Shown in pieces: positions 7,351-63,539 of a stretch of DNA of 64,000 nucleotides. The stretch is from NCBI GenBank assembly GCA_965113315.1, contig OZ220368.1, one strand, 5' to 3'. Below the pieces are notes generated by a model. It did no database searches. It was not told the DNA's origin and saw nothing but the letters and a program-made list of their open reading frames with translations. The position numbers were made by a program, and so were the translations under genes. Numbering within the stretch: the stretch's first letter is position 1; each line of letters opens with the position of its first letter. Origin of the DNA: Podarcis vaucheri. Lineage: Eukaryota.

Positions 7351-7356
7351 AATAAA
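7351..7356 (+). terminator. Probable distal poly(A) signal of SLC44A5 (3'UTR from 4715 to ~7375)
   Basis: AATAAA followed ~25 nt later by a U/GU-rich tract (ttctgtttttgttccttctt), after 2.6 kb of AT-rich UTR-like sequence. Another AATAAA lies at 5342-5347. Confidence 0.6.
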
Positions 7357-7409
7357 GATTTAGATAAAGAAAAAGCACCTTTCTGTTTTTGTTCCTTCTT
7401 AGGTGGCGA

Positions 7410-7601
7410 AGAGTCATAGCTTAGTAAGAGAGCAGGCAAAAGTAGTTGATTGCCAGGTTCAATCCCTGACATCTTTAGGTAGACCTGGGAGAGAACCCTG
7501 ACTCAAAACTATAGAAAGCTGCTGCCAGTCAGCATAGACGATCCTGAACTACATAGACCAGTGACTTGACTCTGTATAAGGCAGCTTCCTCTGTTTCTAT
7601 G
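7410..7601 (+). mobile_element. tRNA-derived squamate SINE (Squam3-like), diverged
   Basis: A-box-like catagcttagt, B-box ggttcaatccc, body gctgccagtcag...gactctgtataaggcagcttcct. Similar to the copies at 14811 and 15287. Confidence 0.7.
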
Positions 7602-8259
7602 CACCATAATTTTGAAAGGGTTCTCATTGTGTTATTGTTGTGCATAACCCCATTCTCATCACTTCACTGAAGCACAGAAGGATAGTTTTTGATATTCATG
7701 TACTCAAAAGTATAAGCAAGTATTAGGGCAAAACATTCCTAATTTCACATATACAGTACATTAATGTGGTCCAAACTAGCAGTGAATAACCAGGAACAAA
7801 ACCTTGCGGTGATAGGGGATAGCTCAGTGAAAGTGTCAGCCAGGTAAGCAGCAGCTGCGAAAAGGGTAGGATAGGCAGGGTTTTTCTTATGCTGTGGATA
7901 ATTTAAAAGTAAAACAGGCTTATGCCAATTTTAACAAACTTGAAGTCTCCTTGCCATTTTTCCTATTCCCCCTCCGCTCAAAATTTGCTTTTATGGAGGA
8001 AAGGTGCCCATAAGGAGTGAATTGCACACAGTTACTAAACTATTTTAACACTTAGTTGAGCTTCAAATCTTCCTCTAGTCACGCAAACAACCTGAGGAGT
8101 GTTGGATTCACTGTCAATTGAGCAACACAATCTGTTAGATAATATGTGCTCTGCATTAGGCTGTGGCAAGAGAGATTATAGGTGTAATTAGATACTTCTG
8201 CACAATTATTTCTAACTGTAATGGCAGCCTCACGTAGACCACACTGAGGTACCTTGAGG

Positions 8260-29100: not shown

Positions 29101-32100
29101 CCCAAGTGGGGAGCAGCAGAGCTTAAAAGGAGAAGTAGAGTCACCAGCAAAGCCTTGCCATTCACACTGGCTGGTGTGGAATGGGAAGGGGGAGCATGAA
29201 AGTTACTGTGGCAGAGCTGGTGCGTCAATTGGGCCATCATGTGATGGTAGTGGAGTTGGCTCAGGGTCCAGCAGATCCAGGCTGAACCCAGCCCTTCCCC
29301 AACTCTGTAACACTGCATTACGGAACTCTCCACAGTCTGCCACCAACAGAGATCTTGCTGCTGGCCTCTTCCTCCAACTAGCACATTGAGTGGGAGGGAT
29401 GGTTCTGAGGAGAGTATGGGAAAACTATAGACAATCCAACTCCCACCCCCAAACCTGTCACAAAGGGGGTTTGAATTACAGTGTAACTCTATCCGCCCAA
29501 TGAGAAATGTTTACTACACCACTTCTTCGCAACTGTGGATCAAATGGAACTACATTGCTTGGGAAGGACAAACATGTACAGTGGTACCTCTGGTTACGTA
29601 CTTAATTCGTTCCGGAGGTCCGTTCTTAACCTGAAACTGTTCTTAACCTGAAGCACCACTTTAGCTAATGGGGCCTCCTCCTGCTGCCACACTGCCACTG
29701 CACATTTTCTGTTCTCATCCTGAAGCAAAATTCTTAACCCGAGGTAATATTTCTGGGTTAGTGGAGTCTGTAACCTGAAGCATATTTAACCTGAAGCGTA
29801 TGTAACCCGAGGTACCACTGTAATGGACTTGGGATACCATGCTTTGAAAAATCTGCAAACTTCAGGAGCAACAGTGGTGCCCCCCCTTTTTTTAATGAAG
29901 TGCAAACATAGCACCACTAGCATCCACCTACAAGCAATTATGGCAATCTGAAGTGGTCTGTGTGGCACGGAGAATTTTACTTTGCCAATGCCACAGATTA
30001 AAAACATTGGAGGAAAGTGGAGGAGAGGTAAAATGCTCCTTAGACAAGAGTGAAAACTACAGATGACCAACTTCTCATGCGATTGCATGCATGCTACATT
30101 TATACATTAGTTACAGAGCAAATGATCAAGTTAATCTGGTTTCCAGAATCAACTGGGGTGTGTGTGTGTTTTCCCTCCACATGAAACAAACAAACAAACA
30201 AAAAAAAAACGGAATACAGCCTAGGGACCTAACATCAAGAAGGAGAGTTACCATTTTCAACTTCTCGTTTCAGATTATCCAACATGCAGTCATAATGTAC
30301 CCTACAGAGGACTTTCTCTTCCACCAAAGCAAACTCCTCCCCTGTGGAAAGCTGCCTTTTGCAGGAGAAGCAGGCAAAGCATGCCAGGTGATACACATTT
30401 CCCTTAGCTCTTCGGACCCAGTCAGTGGAATGGATATGCCTGCCGCAGCGAGAACAACGAGTTCCATACCGTCTGTAACAAAAGAAGGGAAGAGAAAATA
30501 GCAGCCATTCATCATACAACTGCCACTCAAGTTAGATTATGAAGCTACATTACGGGTATTATGAAGTTCATCATAAATGCTACTAGTCTCATTGAAAGCT
30601 GGGGTTTGCTTAAGTTCCACTCAACTGCTTCAGAAAAAAAGGAGGATTGCCTGACTTTGCAATTAATGTTTGAACTTTTGAGATGACGTTCCCTTATGCA
30701 TTCTTGTGGGAATCATAAGATATCTCATAAGGACAAGTCATGCCGCTTTGAGGCAAGTCAGCCCAGGAGCCCTGTTATGTCATACACATGGCGTTACATG
30801 AGATTATACCTTGATGTAGCAGGGGTATCTTTAAAAAAATTGAGTTTAATACCTGCTATCCAAGACAGGAAGTGTTGAGTCAGGCAGAACCCTACACCTT
30901 TTCATTCTATAGCTTTCTTTTAAAAAGGTGTAGGCTATTCCTCCTTACTCCATACATATATTACCATCTGTGTCCAGGAGATGATAATTTATTACCATAA
31001 AAAAAAGGAGGGCAACTAATCTCAAAACTTTGTACAATAAAAAGACCAACAAAAAAACAGCACACAAACAGCAATGAAACTACAAAATAACTCAACAGGA
31101 ACAGTCCATACAGCTAGGCAACACCATGGAAAGTTCTTTCAGCAGTCGGCTTAGACAACTAACCAAAAGAATGTGATATTCTTATGAGGTGGATAGATAC
31201 CTCTGATCTAAAGAGTTCTAAGAGTCAGTGGAACCATCAAGACCTACATTGCTTCATCAAACTCAACTATGAAAAAAACAGAGGGAAGCCATAGTAGTGT
31301 TTCCCCTCTTTAGCTCAGGCAATGGAGGGAAATATGCAGAGAACAGCTGCTCTTTCAGGTACAAAGAGCCTAGGCCAGAGGTCGGCAACGTGCGGCCCAC
31401 GCTGGCTGTTTAACTGGCCCACGAGCCACCCCAGAACTGAGCTTGGCGAGTCCTGGAGGGCTGTGCTAAACCAGCGCAGCGCGGTGTGGGGACTCACTTC
31501 TGCAGCGCCGGAAATCATGTCTGCGCACACGCAGATGCCAGAAATCGCAGGCGAGAACCCAGCCCATGGAGGGTTCTCTGCAGGACTGATCCAGGCCAGG
31601 CCAGGTAAACCGACCCCTGGCCTAGGCCATTTAGGGCATTAAAGAGGTAAAAGGTGGGGGGACGGGACGTTTGCAATACAGGCTGCATTCACATGGCGGT
31701 TCATTCCATTTTAATGACTATTAAGTTCCATATTATATTTGCATAAAATTATTTATACCTTGCCCACCCCGCTGCGTTTCCCCAGCCACTCTGGGCGGCT
31801 CCCAAGAGGTTAAAAACAGAATAAAATATCAAACATTAAAAGCTTCCCTAAACAGGGCTGCTTTCAGATAAAAGTCAGATAGTTGTTTATTTCCTTGACA
31901 TCTGATGGGAGGGCGTTCCACAGAGTGGGCACCACCACTGAGAAGGCCCTCAAATATAATTTGGAAATTACCGTATTTTTCGCCCTACAGGACGCACTTT
32001 CCCCCCTCCAAAAACGAAGGGGAAATGTGTGTGCATCCTATGGGGCGAATGCAGGCTTTCACTGAAGCCTGGAGAGCGAGAGGGGTCGGTGTGCACGGAC

Positions 32101-33113
32101 CCCTCTCGCTCTCCAGGCTTCAGGAAGCTATCCGCAAGCCTTGGGAGCCCGCGGGAGTTCCTGCCGGGCTCCCTAGGCTTGTGGATAGCAGCCTGTTCTG
32201 GGGGGTTGGGGGAAGTAATTTTTTTTCTTTATTTCCCCCCCTCCAAAAAACCCCCTAGGTGCGCCCTATGGGCCGGTGCGCCCTATAGGGCGAAAATTAC
32301 GGTAACAGGCGAATGTTGTGAAAGCAGACAGCAGAATTCTGCACCAAATGAATCCCCAAGTACAGTGCATTGCAGTAATCCAAATGAATTGTTACTAAAG
32401 CATTATAATGGCATAAGTCTGACTAGAGCCATTTTACGACAATATTTTTCTGCTGTTTAGACACTATTCCCCTCCATCGTTGGCACTGAAACAGAAGGAC
32501 AAATGAGCTGAGAATGGGAAGATGTTGAGAATTAATTCTATGACTCTCACCAGTATACAAAACAATGTCAAAAAATCAATGCAAGTGAGCACTTGGTGTA
32601 TTTCTGAAGAGCATCTCACAGTTTCACATCTGTAGGCTTCATGGATCTGATTGTCAGTTTTAAAAACTGTTTCCAAGTTCTTTCTCCTGACTTTTCAACA
32701 GACATATTAGGTGTTATTCAGGATGAAAGGCCAGGTACTTTTATTACAGTCAGAAACCCCAAGCACTTTAGATAACAAAGGGTGAGTTTCTCCTTACACC
32801 TTCAATGGCAGTAGCTTACTCTAGCAGCAAAGTATTTCCATGTTTTATCTTGGTCTGCAAAGAAGAAACGGGAGTAGTTTACTCCCCAAAGTGTTGGCAT
32901 GCAACAGAAATACTTTCCTTCTGGAGGAAACAATTGCAGTTTGCGAGAGTAGATGGAAACAGGAAGATGGCAGTAGGGCTTAATCGAAAACATTTTTTGA
33001 AGTTATAATATTGAGATTGATTTCATCAGATTGCAAGTAATTCCAGATAACTACACTCTTCCAGCCATGCTCTATCCCAGACCACTCCATGACACTGTTT
33101 GTTGGTGTGTGCA

Positions 33114-56794: not shown

Positions 56795-57030
56795 TACAGA
56801 TTCATGGAGGATATAGTTCTTGGCAGATTCTATCCATGATGGCTATGTTTTATCTCCATTGTTAGAGGCAGTATGCTTATGAATTCTGGTTGCTGGAAAC
56901 AGCAGGAAGGAAGGGGGCTATTGCACTCAGGCTCTGCTTGTGAGTGTCTCATAGACATCTGGCTGGCCCCTGTGATAGGAGAACACTGGGCTAGATGGGT
57001 CTTTGGTCTGATCTGACAGGCTTCTTCCTA
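56795..57030 (+). mobile_element. CR1-group LINE 3' end
   Basis: ttcatggaggata...ctgggctagatgggtctttggtctgatctgacaggct terminus. Confidence 0.55.
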
Positions 57031-57499
57031 AGGTGTCATTTTACAAAGTAAAGATGGCTGCCAATATCCTAAGCATAAAGCAAAATTCTTGTTCCATTCT
57101 ACAGAAAAGAACATTTCACAACTGATGTGTCTTACTTGGGAACATGTGCACAGGGAAATTCCTATTTAATTTTCAGTTTAAAAAGAAGAAAGGTGGAAGA
57201 ATTTGTTGCATGCATGCCTTATTACCCTATTGGTATAATGTGCCTTTTGACATACTAACAATATATTATTGTCTTATGTTATTACGTGTGGTAAGCAGTA
57301 TTTATTTGCAGTGAAGTTGGATAATGAGATGCAGTATGCATGCTAGTTTGCTGAATTTTGTTTTACTGGAGGAAAGAGAAGTTGGTAAAGAGAAGATACG
57401 TCAAAATTTTATTCAGAGGGAGGGGGATGGAGAAGAGTAATCGGTTTAATTTCCAGGTAAACATATAGCTGTGAAGTAACGGTAGCCAGAGAGAAAGTG

Positions 57500-60070
57500 A
57501 GGGCTGGAATGGGCGTGAAGCAGGACCCCTAGCCAGGCCACAACAGAGGACTCAGGCGGATTTTGCCTGTGGCTTCAATTCGATTCCCTGCCGTTTATCA
57601 GATAAATAAACAGGACAGGTTTTTGTTTGGGTTTTCGCTGGCCTGACCGAGGGAGGTCCAGTCCCCTTGGGGCGAAGGAGCACGGATCTTGTGAATGACG
57701 CTTTGGGGCCTTCTCAAAATGCAAAGTCGCTTTCTTTAGACAAGCGTTTGCGTTTCTGTAGGCTCCTTTCCCCCTCCCACTTTCCCCTTTCCTTTCCCCT
57801 TTTTTTGTGCTGGCTCACCGGGCGATCCAAGCAATTACTTCATCATCTCCCACCCAAGCAGCCAGCAGGGCGCTCGGCTCGCTCCAACGACCCACGTTAG
57901 GGAGGAAATAGAAGCTCCACGGAGTTCAGTGGCGCTTATTCGCAAGTAACCGCGCATGGGGGGGGGGAAGGGTAGAAAGACAGACAGACATAAAGAAAAT
58001 TCTCCAAAGTATTAAGATTGGTCTTTCGGACCAGGTGGAGGGGTAATGCACGCGCCTTTTCTTAAAACCTAATCTCTCTCTTTTTCTCCCCATTTTTCTG
58101 TTTTCTTCCCCCTTTCTCTGTGTATTAAATTCTGCCACCACGCCTGCTCAGTGAAAGAACTAACATTATCCAAATATCAGGGGCCCCGATGCAGCTTCTT
58201 ACTAGCAATGTTGCAGGCACCTTAAAAACAACAACAACAACCTAGCATAAACTTTGAACAGTAGCATAAAGAAGGATATGCTTTTTTAAAAAAGAAACCC
58301 AGCCAGACCTCCCTTCCCCCATGTCTTCCTTTCCGCGCCAGTGAAAAGCGCCTCCTGTCAGGCCTTGGTGCGGTGCGATCCTGCGCCTGCTTACTCCAAA
58401 GCTAATTCTACTGAAGGAAACGATTCGTATCTGTTTTGTCTTCGATTATTGCTTTCCCAAGGGGCAGGCGGCTATACAGAGGGGAACGGGGAGACGCTCT
58501 TTCTGCCATCCTGCCGGATGGAGCCCTGCGCAAAGGTGCGCACCGCACCATGCCGAGTTGGAAAGAGAGAGGTGGAGACAATCTGCCCCCTCCCCGTTTA
58601 AAATTATGTCACGCCTAAAGCATCCTGACAGACTCATACAGCAGCCGGAGAGGGAAACGGTCCCTTCCAGAACTAAGATTTAAATGTCAGAAAGTATCGC
58701 TCTATCCATGTCTATATCTGCGCTCACCCAAGGAGATTAGCAGTGCGCATGGTCCTTTCGAAAGTGAAATGAGCTACTGAATAGAAAGAACGCTGCCCCG
58801 AAGAGTGAACAGTGGAACAGCGCAAACTGTTAAATCCTATTGAGCTCAGTGGCATTTCCTGCCAGGTAAGCGTGTATATTGAATTCTAGCCTAAATCTTG
58901 ATCCTGTGGGAGTCAAACAATTACAGAATGAAAGGTCCAGCACGCCTAAAAGGCAAGGCTAGAAATGAAGAAATGCTTTTAACCAAGGGCAGCCAGTATT
59001 AAAATTGCAACAGGCAAGGCACCCTTGTTACACCGAACTCTTCCTCTGGTTGTGCAAAGCGTGGCGATACTAAGAGTTGTTCGCCCAGTGTTCAGTGGCG
59101 CCTGCTCCCAGATAAGTAGGCATAGGATGGCAACTTGAGAGTTGAACCCAATCCAATCCCACTCAGGCGTTCCACACTGAAATCAATGGGCACGATGCTG
59201 TCCACTGATGTCAAATGGATCTGCTCTGAACAGCACTTAGGTTTGGGTTTGCTGCTTTGGAATAATAACCACTCCACCGTGGTTGTCCCCTCACGATCAC
59301 ACACTCACACAGATTTACAAGCGAAGCTCCATATTTAGGGATAATGCACGCTCGGAAACGCGGCGGAAAACCAGCCTCTTGAAAGAGCTGTGTGTTGCTG
59401 AAGAACCAGTCAGTTGTAGTAGATCCTCTGGAGGCTCTGGAAAAAACAATTCTCGCTCTCCTCCTCCTCTCTTTCCCCTCCTGCTCACAGGATTCCCCGA
59501 TCTCTTGGGGTTTGTCCTGGCCGGGTCTCCTGCACAGTCTGGTGCGCGCTTCACTCCGTCCTGCTTGGACAAGAGGGCTCCGAGTGCGGTTCCGGCTGTC
59601 CATCCATCCTTCCTTCCGTCTTCCCTGCTTCGCCTCCCCTGCAGCCCTCCAGGGAAGAAAGGATTGGAACGCCTCCATCTCTCCTCCAGGATAAAGGCCG
59701 TGAGAGGTACCCTGTATCTTTTCACTCACACCCACAAAAACCTCCATGGCAACGGGGCTCTTCCCGCAGGACACCCTGCGCTCTCTCCCCCTCTCCGCCC
59801 TCCGGCTACAGCCGGAGCCAGAAAAAAATCAGCAACGGAGGCCGAGGAGGAAGGACTCTCGCTCAGCTGCTCTCCCGGAGCCGCTTGGAATTGGGCTGCG
59901 CCGCTATTCGAAGCAATCCCCGCCGCTGCTTCCCGAAACTGCTCATCTTCAGCTTTTTGGTGGGGGATGGAACTGTGAGGCTTTCCTGCGACTGGATAGG
60001 GGGCAGGCAAGAGAAAGGCAGCCAGGCCCTGGGATCTCCTTTAAAATGTTTTTTTTCCCCTTGCGCAGAA
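57500..60070. promoter_or_regulatory. Second (distal) CpG island, candidate LHX8 enhancer or non-coding promoter
   Basis: Abrupt CpG/GC enrichment with no recognisable coding exon. Confidence 0.65.
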
Positions 60071-60862: not shown

Positions 60863-61873
60863 CGCCTTCAATCATAATAATTCCATCTGATCCATGTGGT
60901 GGCTGCCATCCAGATATTTAATAACTGGAAGAGGAGTTAAGAGAGCAGGTAAAAAACCCATTCACAACTCCACCAAAGGAAGGGAGGGTTCTTATGTTCT
61001 TTGGCTTCTCTAAAGGGGCATATTTTGCATGTATACAGTCATTTCAGGTCTCATGACATGCATCATACCCATGAAGGAACAACAGCACAGCAAGTAATTA
61101 TGGAATGGAGGTTTTTATACATATATAAAAAACAGCAACACTATATGACATAAACAAGAAAAACTAAATACTTCCTTCTGGCCACCCTGGGAGACAGAGG
61201 CAACTCCAGGGCAAAACAAAAAAGCACAACAACCTACCTCCAAAACCAAGGCAACCAAGAAGCAAATTAGATTTGCTATGGACTGAGCTCTGTCTCAAAT
61301 ATTATTGGTATCTTCCCCAAACAGAAACAAAGTTATGTTTCACATTAAAGGCTTGATCCTAAACCTATTGACTTGGAATCAAGCCCTATTGATTTCAACT
61401 GGCTTTATGTCCAAATTTTAAGAAAGGCATGAAGAGTTGTACTGTTCCCAAGTCTTTACCGTATCTCTATGAACACTACGAGCCATTGCTCCTTTTGGAT
61501 TTCCTGCCTGCCATGAAACAGCTAAAGCTCTATAAACCAGAAGTGGGGAACCTGTGGCCACACAGAAATTGCTCCCATTGGCAGCATGGTCAATGGCAAT
61601 AGATAATGGGAAATAGAATCCAACAACATCTGGACGGTCACAGATTCCCCAGCCCTGATCGTAAGAGAGTGGCACAAGCTGCCAAACTGGCTTGTGTCAG
61701 AGGTTCCATGATGTCGTCAAAGAAATGGTTCAATAGGCAAATAGGTTAACCAATCCACATTCCTCGGGGACTACGTCAAACAAAGACAACCCTGGATGCC
61801 ACAAAGCAGGGAAGACAGAATTTGAATTTGGGAAAATGATGTGATTATGTTATTCTGTAACACCATGTATGTT

Positions 61874-62097
61874 AAAATAAAAAAATCCCTTCCAGTAGCA
61901 CCTTAAAGACCAACTAAGTTAGTTCTTGGTATGAGCTTTCGTGTGCATGCACACTTCTTCAGATACAGATATCTGAAGAAGTGTGCATGCACACGGAAGC
62001 TCATACCAAGAACTAACTTAGTTGGTCTTTAAGATGCTACTGGAAGGGATTTTTTTATTTTGACTATGGCAGACCAACACGGCTACCTATCTGTAAC
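61874..62097. mobile_element. Penelope-like element remnant: 92-bp inverted arms plus a short unpaired 3' extension
   Basis: Arms 61874-61965 and 61970-62061 with 2 mismatches and a 4-nt spacer; contains the CTGAAGA...GAAA hammerhead core typical of PLE pseudo-LTRs. Confidence 0.75.
61929..61966 (-). ncRNA. Minimal type I hammerhead ribozyme motif
   Basis: GTAT-CTGAAGA-A-GTGTGCATGCACAC-GAAA-GC-TC^ATAC: stem I GTAT/ATAC, palindromic stem II, minimal AGCT stem III. Confidence 0.6.
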
Positions 62098-63539
62098 TGG
62101 AATTTAAAAAAAACAACAATTATGAATGAGAATCCTAACACACATTTTTATATATAATTCCATTATCTTAAGAAGTAGCTACATGGTTGTAGTTATAAAT
62201 GGATATGCTGCAGGAATGTTATACAATGATGCCTTGTACAATCAACTAAGTGTAATGCTTCTATGAGATTCTTTGAAGGGTGTGATGGAGTGACTACTAT
62301 CACTTGCATAATTTAACAGTGATTACACATAGCTCAACCTGACAATCCACATATCCTAATCTGGCAGTGCATAAAAATGTAATATTTATTATGATAGTGT
62401 TAGTCTCAACTAGACAGAAACATATTTGTTTCTAGACCAAGTTGGCAATCCTAAGTGTATTTTCTAGTGTAAGTTCAACTGAAAACAATGTGACTTATTT
62501 CTAAGTAAATTTACATGATATTGTGCCATAAACTGTAATGTAAACATACTTAACTGGGAACCTAACCCTGTTGAGTTTAAAGGGAATTACTATTATTTTT
62601 AGTATAGGCTTGCATCATAAGGTGGCAAATCTTGCATTATCTTGTGCCGACATCATCAATAAACCTCATATTTAGAATCTCAGAATACTGGACACAATGG
62701 TTCCATGGCCTATCACAGCCTATCAGAGCCTTATCTGTGGTGGCCCCACACCTAACAAATTCCTTTCCCAGGGAAATATGTGTGAGTGGCTCTAGAAAGA
62801 ACCTTCAGGGCTTCATAAAAAATTCAATAAATCTACATTTGGTTGGAGTGCGGTCGTTTGAATTTTATCTGTAGCTGCCCATTAATCAGAACATTGTTGG
62901 ATTTTATTGTGGTAGGGGGAGGTGATCTTATGTGATTTTATTTTTAAAAATTGTGAAGTTCCTTGGGAGGGCTATGCTGAAACACAGCTTGGAAAACTTT
63001 TAAGCCAGTCAATAAATTCTACAAAATGGTTTGGACAGGCAATAGTGAAGAACACATATGGTATGTAGGCCTCACCTCTCCAATCCTGTCTACATCCTAG
63101 GGTTCTACAAGCTGAAAGGTTTCCATTGTGACTCAACAAGCAGGGAATGAAGTTACATTCACTGGACCTATATCAACAAAGGCACCCAAGTCAGAAATAA
63201 CCCAAGTGATTTTTTGTCTGCAAAGAGTTGTGCAAATTCTTCACAAAAGGCTATCAAGTGGTCCAAATTGTCTTCTCATAAGGTGGATCACAGTACGCCA
63301 TTGACCAGCCCCAAAGGTGTGGATATTATTATTATTATTAAATTTATATACCACCCTTTATTCGAAGATCACAGGGTGGTTTTCAACAAAAAACCACCAA
63401 ATAATTCTTTAATTGAGCTCTAGCCCATGTTTGGTTGGGTTTGCTCAGAGTTTTCCACCAGCTTCACTCTAGTCTTCAGTCCAGTCATTTTATTGGTCAC
63501 AGTTCCCTGGAAAACCAGAGAACTCATTTTGGCTTTGTT

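Follow-up and report, generated by a model that had tools for sequence, protein, structure and literature searches.

A head-to-head Penelope-like insertion in Podarcis vaucheri, probably primed from both 3′ ends of its target

Results

A palindromic insertion upstream of a LIM-homeobox gene

The window (the whole stretch of 64,000 nucleotides analysed here, from Podarcis vaucheri contig OZ220368.1 of assembly GCA_965113315.1) holds LIM-LIM-homeobox exons on its − strand at about 24.7, 28.6, 30.4, 34.1 and 39.9 kb, belonging to a gene that we take to be LHX8. An insertion of 228 bp (61874–62101), which by comparison with the empty site replaces 8 bp of target DNA, lies about 22 kb to the 5′ side of the 5′-most LIM exon that was found. 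A CpG-rich stretch at 57000–60000, about 2 kb from the insert, is a possible regulatory region; it is separate from the island at 40–50 kb, where the LIM-homeobox gene has its 5′ end. An unrelated palindromic element between two of the LIM exons (31969–32305) has terminal inverted repeats that are long but imperfect, encloses a 26-bp hairpin and looks like a DNA-transposon MITE.

Most of the insertion is a palindrome, whose arms (61874–61965 and 61970–62061) are complementary at 90/92 positions, the mismatched pairs being 61939/61996 and 61901/62034; an alternative delimitation gives arms of 95 nt at 97%. Its folding z-score is −27.9, and 0/200 shuffles were equally stable. The recomputed pairing agrees with the first-pass annotation, which had described two 92-bp arms around a 4-nt loop (61966–61969). 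The left edge that it gave for the insertion, 61874, also stands, but its right edge, 62097, falls short, the element reaching 62101.

We number the element so that position 1 is window position 61970. The short arm (− strand) comprises positions 1–92, and its outer end is start site 1, a U-rich tract directly 5′ of the start codon of the element's open reading frame (ORF). The long arm (+ strand) consists of the portion common to the short arm, which holds both arm differences (61996 and 62034), and a one-sided ‘tail’ (62062–62101, positions 93–132) whose outer end is start site 2 and which resembles the tails in PMC3846280 and PMC11167929; what we say of published work, cited by accession or DOI, refers to the sections available to us. 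The tail encodes the first 12 codons of the ORF, with the ATG at 62066. The arms meet head to head at 61966–61969, where TATA-like and initiator-like motifs in a longer copy predict that the RNA of the element has its 5′ end, and the insert is thus predicted to be the 5′ UTR and first 12 codons of the element, without a promoter.

An intact hammerhead motif and its altered counterpart

In the left arm (61929–61966, − strand) the first-pass annotation had recognized a hammerhead core with a 4-bp stem I, an additional A preceding stem II and, where stem III would be, AGCU, and we find the same: the core CUGANGA/GAAA/UH, stems I and II and the palindromic 15.2–16.2 are all present, forming an intact minimal type I motif with the features described in PMC4209133. 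The motif layout likewise confirms the predicted cut site between 61933 and 61932, that is, between element positions 33 and 34. Stem II had been called perfect. This holds for its sequence, 14 nt that form a perfect palindrome and might also pair from one molecule to another, but not for the helix, which can form 5 bp with a 4-nt loop and not 7 bp. The right arm (61969–62006, + strand) reads GGAA instead of GAAA at 61996, so that one of the two arm mismatches falls in the core, as already noted; its stem I has in addition lost the first pair, with A instead of G at 61969, and the motif is predicted to be inactive. Two random mismatches among 92 positions would strike at least one of the 13 core bases with a probability of 0.26, and the core mismatch therefore needs no special explanation.

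An Rfam search gave no hammerhead model match at the palindrome up to E 10; the matches there were to microRNA hairpin models alone, below gathering scores. The genome also contains an older, decayed second hammerhead-bearing family (L280, L291, L295–L299) whose downstream pLTR sequence is related. Comparison of the stems with this family revealed compensatory changes: seven older copies keep the motif with other stem letters, and 3/9 pairs are changed on both sides. The covariation score of 0.293 was reached by 8/500 shuffles, in a comparison of two families found with a search pattern that fixed the core and outer stem II. Covariation thus lends the hammerhead modest support.

At this locus the ribozyme would have little opportunity to act. 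The read-through RNA has a predicted fold of −168.9 kcal/mol, and imposing the hammerhead costs 57.7 kcal/mol. Whichever strand is transcribed, the sense motif comes after its perfect complement, and we therefore predict that the hammerhead is locked into the long hairpin and neither folds nor cleaves here. It appears to be a passenger of the pLTR, at an insertion predicted to have no promoter of its own.

An empty site in other runs and the age of the insertion

Contigs from three sequencing runs (X9, X3 and X4) span the site without the insert, and X9, X4, X8 and X18 have the same 8 other letters between 61873 and 62102; the insert is present in X1, which is probably the source sample. X9 shares its organism label with X1, yet 15 of about 970 flank bases differ, as many as in the other organisms, and the case for polymorphism within the species rests on that label. 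Among the listed carriers of the insert sequence there were no RNA runs. Run X18, guessed to be RNA and from another organism, yields a 1131-base contig over the empty site at depth 8 (flank 61665–61873), which may reflect transcription or DNA carry-over.

The copy at 61874–62101 is associated with an 8-bp target deletion and no target site duplication. An 8-base match that could be taken for a duplication is an A-run inside the arm, and the empty site shows the deletion. Copies of Penelope-like elements (PLEs) without a duplication are also described in PMC3846280. Judged from these sequence comparisons, the insertion is recent.

The arm belongs to an endonuclease-positive Penelope-like element

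The first-pass annotation had proposed a recent Penelope-like insertion. This is borne out by the empty site in five runs and by linkage of the arm to an ORF with reverse transcriptase (RT) and GIY-YIG domains. The right arm plus 40 bases returned 908 first-look candidates in the genome, and the 40 that were scored are 98–100% identical. Longer genomic copies extend upstream into a GIY-YIG endonuclease frame, and one of them, L108, has a complete 910-aa ORF whose start codon, at position 97, lies inside the arm. Against Pfam this ORF scores 47 bits for RVT_1 (cut-off 29.6) and 24.6 bits for GIY-YIG (cut-off 22.6); it is a single frame, RT followed by a C-terminal GIY-YIG domain, contiguous with the arm. 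The family accordingly includes an EN+ Penelope-like ORF, of which the stump at our locus holds 12 codons only. L108 itself is arranged as a partial tandem, in which 1549 bp are repeated at 99.8%, and the hammerhead lies within the pLTR.

The nearest named proteins to the L108 ORF are from turtle, at 69–70% identity. The ORF has one CX4CXXC motif in its linker, at residue 769; a CX2-5CXXC zinc-finger-like linker between RT and endonuclease is common to the Neptune and Nematis clades (PMC8557442). By its protein sequence the family is an endonuclease-positive PLE with a Neptune/Nematis-type linker. We call it Neptune-type on the basis of this linker and on our assumption that reptile elements of such kind are Neptune.

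Upstream of its position 1, L108 has a TATA-like box that begins 30 bases before an initiator-like A, itself 4 bases upstream of position 1, and we predict that element transcription starts at this A. Both near-full copies that we fetched (L108:1970-2959 and 7352-7867, L109:5355-6999) lie within or beside LINE-like coding sequence, surroundings that might provide read-through transcription. Another copy, L111 (G000:C19:107236200-107240200), is two-armed, sits within telomeric-type hexamer repeat, and has both arms 100% identical to L108; on that identity it is a very recent insertion.

The palindrome is one of many and its GGAA arm is a rare decay product

A search for the palindrome centre with a loop of at most 14 bases gave 847 and 833 matches on the two strands (control, 0 and 0). 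The locus is ordinary, one of about 850 similar palindromes in the genome. Exact matches to a 23-mer over the intact core number 11,660; the GGAA form of this 23-mer has 76, which are scattered, none in a head-to-head pair. Inspected by eye, the first 100 listed of the 11,660 intact cores include 48 that form 24 head-to-head pairs and no tail-to-tail pairs within 700 bp. In 48 aligned palindromes (from 54 loci, six with short arms being left out), GGAA occurs in 0/96 arms, and 10/96 arms have lost the core G by decay of its CpG. GGAA is a rare mutation by decay of one arm, at background frequency. The first-pass annotation had drawn attention to a pair with one intact and one mutated hammerhead; these counts do not support a meaning in it. 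They also led us to reject the ideas that GGAA marks a subfamily that is spreading or serves as an off-switch under selection.

Arm ends follow a two-site rule across the family

We examined 55 short palindromes, 54 from contig C1 and the one described here, picked by a pattern that allowed a loop of at most 14 and demanded that each arm extend to position 1. In 45/55, one arm ends at 83–98 and the other at 123–138; the other ten, off this long-and-short pattern, are older or partly deleted copies. Target site duplications of at least 8 bp flank 43 of the 44 canonical palindromes other than ours, with exactly 12 bp in 21, as compared with 70/1980 shuffled flank pairs. At the inner side, both arms stop no more than 5 bases upstream of position 1 in 52/54 palindromes; the pattern would have admitted arms that extend 8–14 bases upstream, but there are none. 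Copies chosen on other grounds behave alike, with 18 of 25 scorable (of 50) also stopping near position 1. A splice acceptor as the source of this 5′ boundary is disfavoured by the junction sequences, which have no constant upstream exon.

Longer copies extend the rule. Among 49 long copies, taken from the 150 best endonuclease hits and including five selected as visibly paired, 19 are two-armed, 29 are one-armed and one has no pLTR end. In each of the 19 two-armed copies one arm uses the first and the other the second of two start sites, which lie about 35 nt from each other, and the one-armed copies end at 87–102 (14 copies), at 123–142 (14) or at 50 (one). By impression and not by rigorous count, duplications look shorter and more variable in one-armed long copies (L067–L150) than in two-armed ones, which would be expected if an unprimed overhang were trimmed.

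The arms of a pair also share their ancestry. In 14 long copies the two arms agree at 279/286 diagnostic-site comparisons, where independent draw predicts 122 disagreements, and in short copies they agree in 11/11 and 11/12 cases at two subfamily sites. By our estimate, mutation at 0.65% would account for roughly as many discordances as the three noted at position 79 among the first hits, a set selected for that variant. These comparisons indicate that both arms stem from one source lineage. We rejected two different RNA templates per palindrome on the agreement in long copies; one RNA copied twice and two RNAs of one source both fit the data.

A common lineage is also what would be seen if the 3′ end of a single cDNA snapped back and copied itself into an inverted arm, akin to the self-priming on an antisense template proposed in PMC3846280. 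Such folding back would suit the many junctions that lie on internal palindromes or microhomologies and, at our locus, the containment of the short arm in the long one; the locus taken by itself is compatible with it. As a general rule it is contradicted by the long copies: the arms are non-nested in 10 of the 19 two-armed ones (by at least 306 bases in nine), the site-1 arm extending further 5′ while the tail is present on the site-2 arm only, so that neither arm can have been copied from the other. Moreover, the outer end of the short arm is the alternative 3′ end of one-armed copies (14/29), for which copying gives no reason, and in copy L144 the inverted arm is the tail only. We therefore consider a fold-back origin improbable. 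The number of similar palindromes, and one junction sequence that recurs often among the matches listed, might instead suggest that the palindrome is itself mobile, as a hairpin RNA or MITE-like unit copied whole from a master locus. However, the junctions and both outer ends vary between copies, and the same end rule applies to arms from 36 to more than 2000 bases; this origin is very improbable.

A possible footprint of ribozyme cleavage

Most short copies include the entire ribozyme and begin at the predicted transcription start, from which we conclude that uncut RNA is the usual template, as it is the main one in vitro (PMC11167929). A minority may record cleaved RNA. Among 44 palindromes with arms ending near positions 30–39, both arms end at 34, at the predicted cut, in 12 (8 with a 2-base overlap and 4 blunt or with an insert). 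The comparison junctions are 4 at equal overlap at position 35 and 10 at a 4-base overlap at position 30; all these counts were made by eye. For 12 versus 4, p = 0.04, and for the overlap class alone (8 versus 4), p = 0.19. The cut-site palindromes that we fetched are normal two-site insertions and carry a subfamily letter that precludes a longer microhomology. A control window for two-arm junctions contained 95 loci that were mostly microhomology-driven, with small peaks of their own (first 50 inspected by eye).

Single arms give less. A purine directly before the cut site occurs in 67 copies; the corresponding counts are 64 for position 38, the control, and 20 for position 32. The 59 distinct cut-site hits comprise 12 point changes, 20 cases of a 4-base microhomology, two of a 3-base deletion and 25 other junctions; 25/59 compares with 7/30 junctions at position 38 (p = 0.10), and at position 32 12/20 are also junctions. 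Given so little single-arm excess over the controls, we rejected the idea that the 5′ ends of templates arise mainly by ribozyme cleavage. As a sign that some templates were cut in vivo, the footprint of junctions at the cut site is suggestive but a weak hint, with a chance that we place a little under even.

A separate case is L167/L168 (G000:C18:9551725-9551977), in which the two arms, separated by about 200 bp of other DNA, share a 3-base deletion whose end coincides exactly with the cut site.

Discussion

The insertion is a recent, dead-end copy of the first ~130 bases of a Neptune-type PLE, its two head-to-head copies having probably arisen by priming from both 3′ ends of the target. Under this model the element protein, probably as a dimer, would make a 12-nt staggered cut, and each 3′ end of the cut target would prime reverse transcription of uncleaved element RNA, the two ends using one each of the two internal start sites about 35 bases apart. 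Both cDNAs would run off the 5′ end of the RNA and be joined by microhomology or short templated inserts; at the copy described here, both overhangs and 8 further bases would have been lost. Of these steps, the geometry of the cut, the dimer and the way in which the cDNAs are joined are our inference. The paired end sites, non-nested arms, 12-bp duplications and common lineage together favour two-ended priming on sense RNA, for which the family data provide good support. The end joining of our own copy, with its 8-bp deletion and no duplication, is unexplained by a clean version of the model.

Published work supplies several of these elements. In vitro, two internal start sites, cutting and extension of both strands, a predicted dimer and a dispensable ribozyme are reported in PMC11167929. 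How PLEs build inverted ends with a one-sided tail is treated as open in the available sections of PMC3846280, PMC8557442 and PMC11167929. In the PLE literature that we searched, mainly titles and the starts of abstracts with few subscription journals, we found no statement of two-ended priming or of a cut-site footprint.

A role in the host, with the locus acting as a regulatory ribozyme or dsRNA source for the LIM-homeobox gene through one active and one silenced hammerhead, is scarcely credible: the intact core is on the same strand as that gene and X18 has a contig across the empty site (which may be DNA), but the insertion is absent from five other runs, one of them sharing its organism label with X1, GGAA is no more frequent than background, the core G is lost at a CpG in 10/96 arms, and the distance of ~22 kb from the most upstream exon found and the fold penalty of 57.7 kcal/mol argue also against the self-cleavage on the LHX8-sense strand suggested by the first-pass annotation. 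We see no sign of function at the locus.

Much of what lies here has precedents, as the first-pass annotation had stated for minimal hammerheads in PLE pLTRs. In metazoan PLEs these are known from reptiles such as turtles and snakes, with opposite-strand pairs 100–700 bp apart (PMC4209133), and cleavage of hammerheads as dimers is reviewed in PMC6765202. The motif described here shares with those of PMC4209133 the type I core, 4-bp stem I, extra base before stem II, G10.1-C11.1 pair, palindromic 15.2–16.2 and lack of stem III; it differs in its stem II, a perfect 14-nt palindrome, and its activity is putative.

The unit of inverted pLTR, one-sided tail and duplication is also published, for Pen2a_Av in PMC3846280 and as a general scheme in PMC8557442. 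Our family has the same inverted 5′-truncated copy with a tail of 30–40 bp at one end. As in Pen2a_Av, the inverted head-to-head pLTR is 30–40 bp shorter than the direct one, the tail runs into the first codons, the pLTR contains TATA and initiator motifs and the duplication is short. Unlike Pen2a_Av, the stump consists of the transcribed part of the pLTR only, with no internal ORF and an 8-bp target deletion, and the duplication in the family is nearly fixed at 12 bp. The layout is thus not new; the family data add mechanism.

The closest functional parallel is Poseidon PAc of Anolis carolinensis (PMC11167929), in which two internal RT start sites also bound the tail, the ribozyme is dispensable for insertion and uncut RNA is the main template. 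PAc belongs to another clade, the linker here being Neptune-type. PMC11167929 found no difference in start site between strands, whereas every two-armed long copy examined in our family pairs one start site with each target end, one of each per insertion, a pairing that the available sections of that paper do not report. Tandem non-LTR retrozymes have head-to-tail units, each with an intact hammerhead (10.64898/2026.07.22.740005); ours are head to head with one core changed.

The family may be read as recording a fixed 12-nt staggered cut, two fixed priming sites and at least 12 palindromes made from self-cleaved template, a composite that is tentative and that on balance we doubt. Priming from a second strand has a counterpart in LINE-1 twin priming, where the second target strand primes internally and leaves an inverted 5′ segment inside one target site duplication. 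There the segments are mostly non-overlapping and the second site varies; in our family both sites are fixed, and the overlap of the arms is usually complete.

The insertion can be used as a presence/absence marker. The very young copies in the family yield sharp predictions for work in vitro, namely a 12-nt stagger, one start site per target end and independent arms. If the composite reading is true, the family would provide population-level evidence of cutting in vivo by a metazoan minimal hammerhead, of which we found none in the portions of the literature available to us. And if the cut-site class is real, it would mean ribozyme activity in the living vertebrate germ line.
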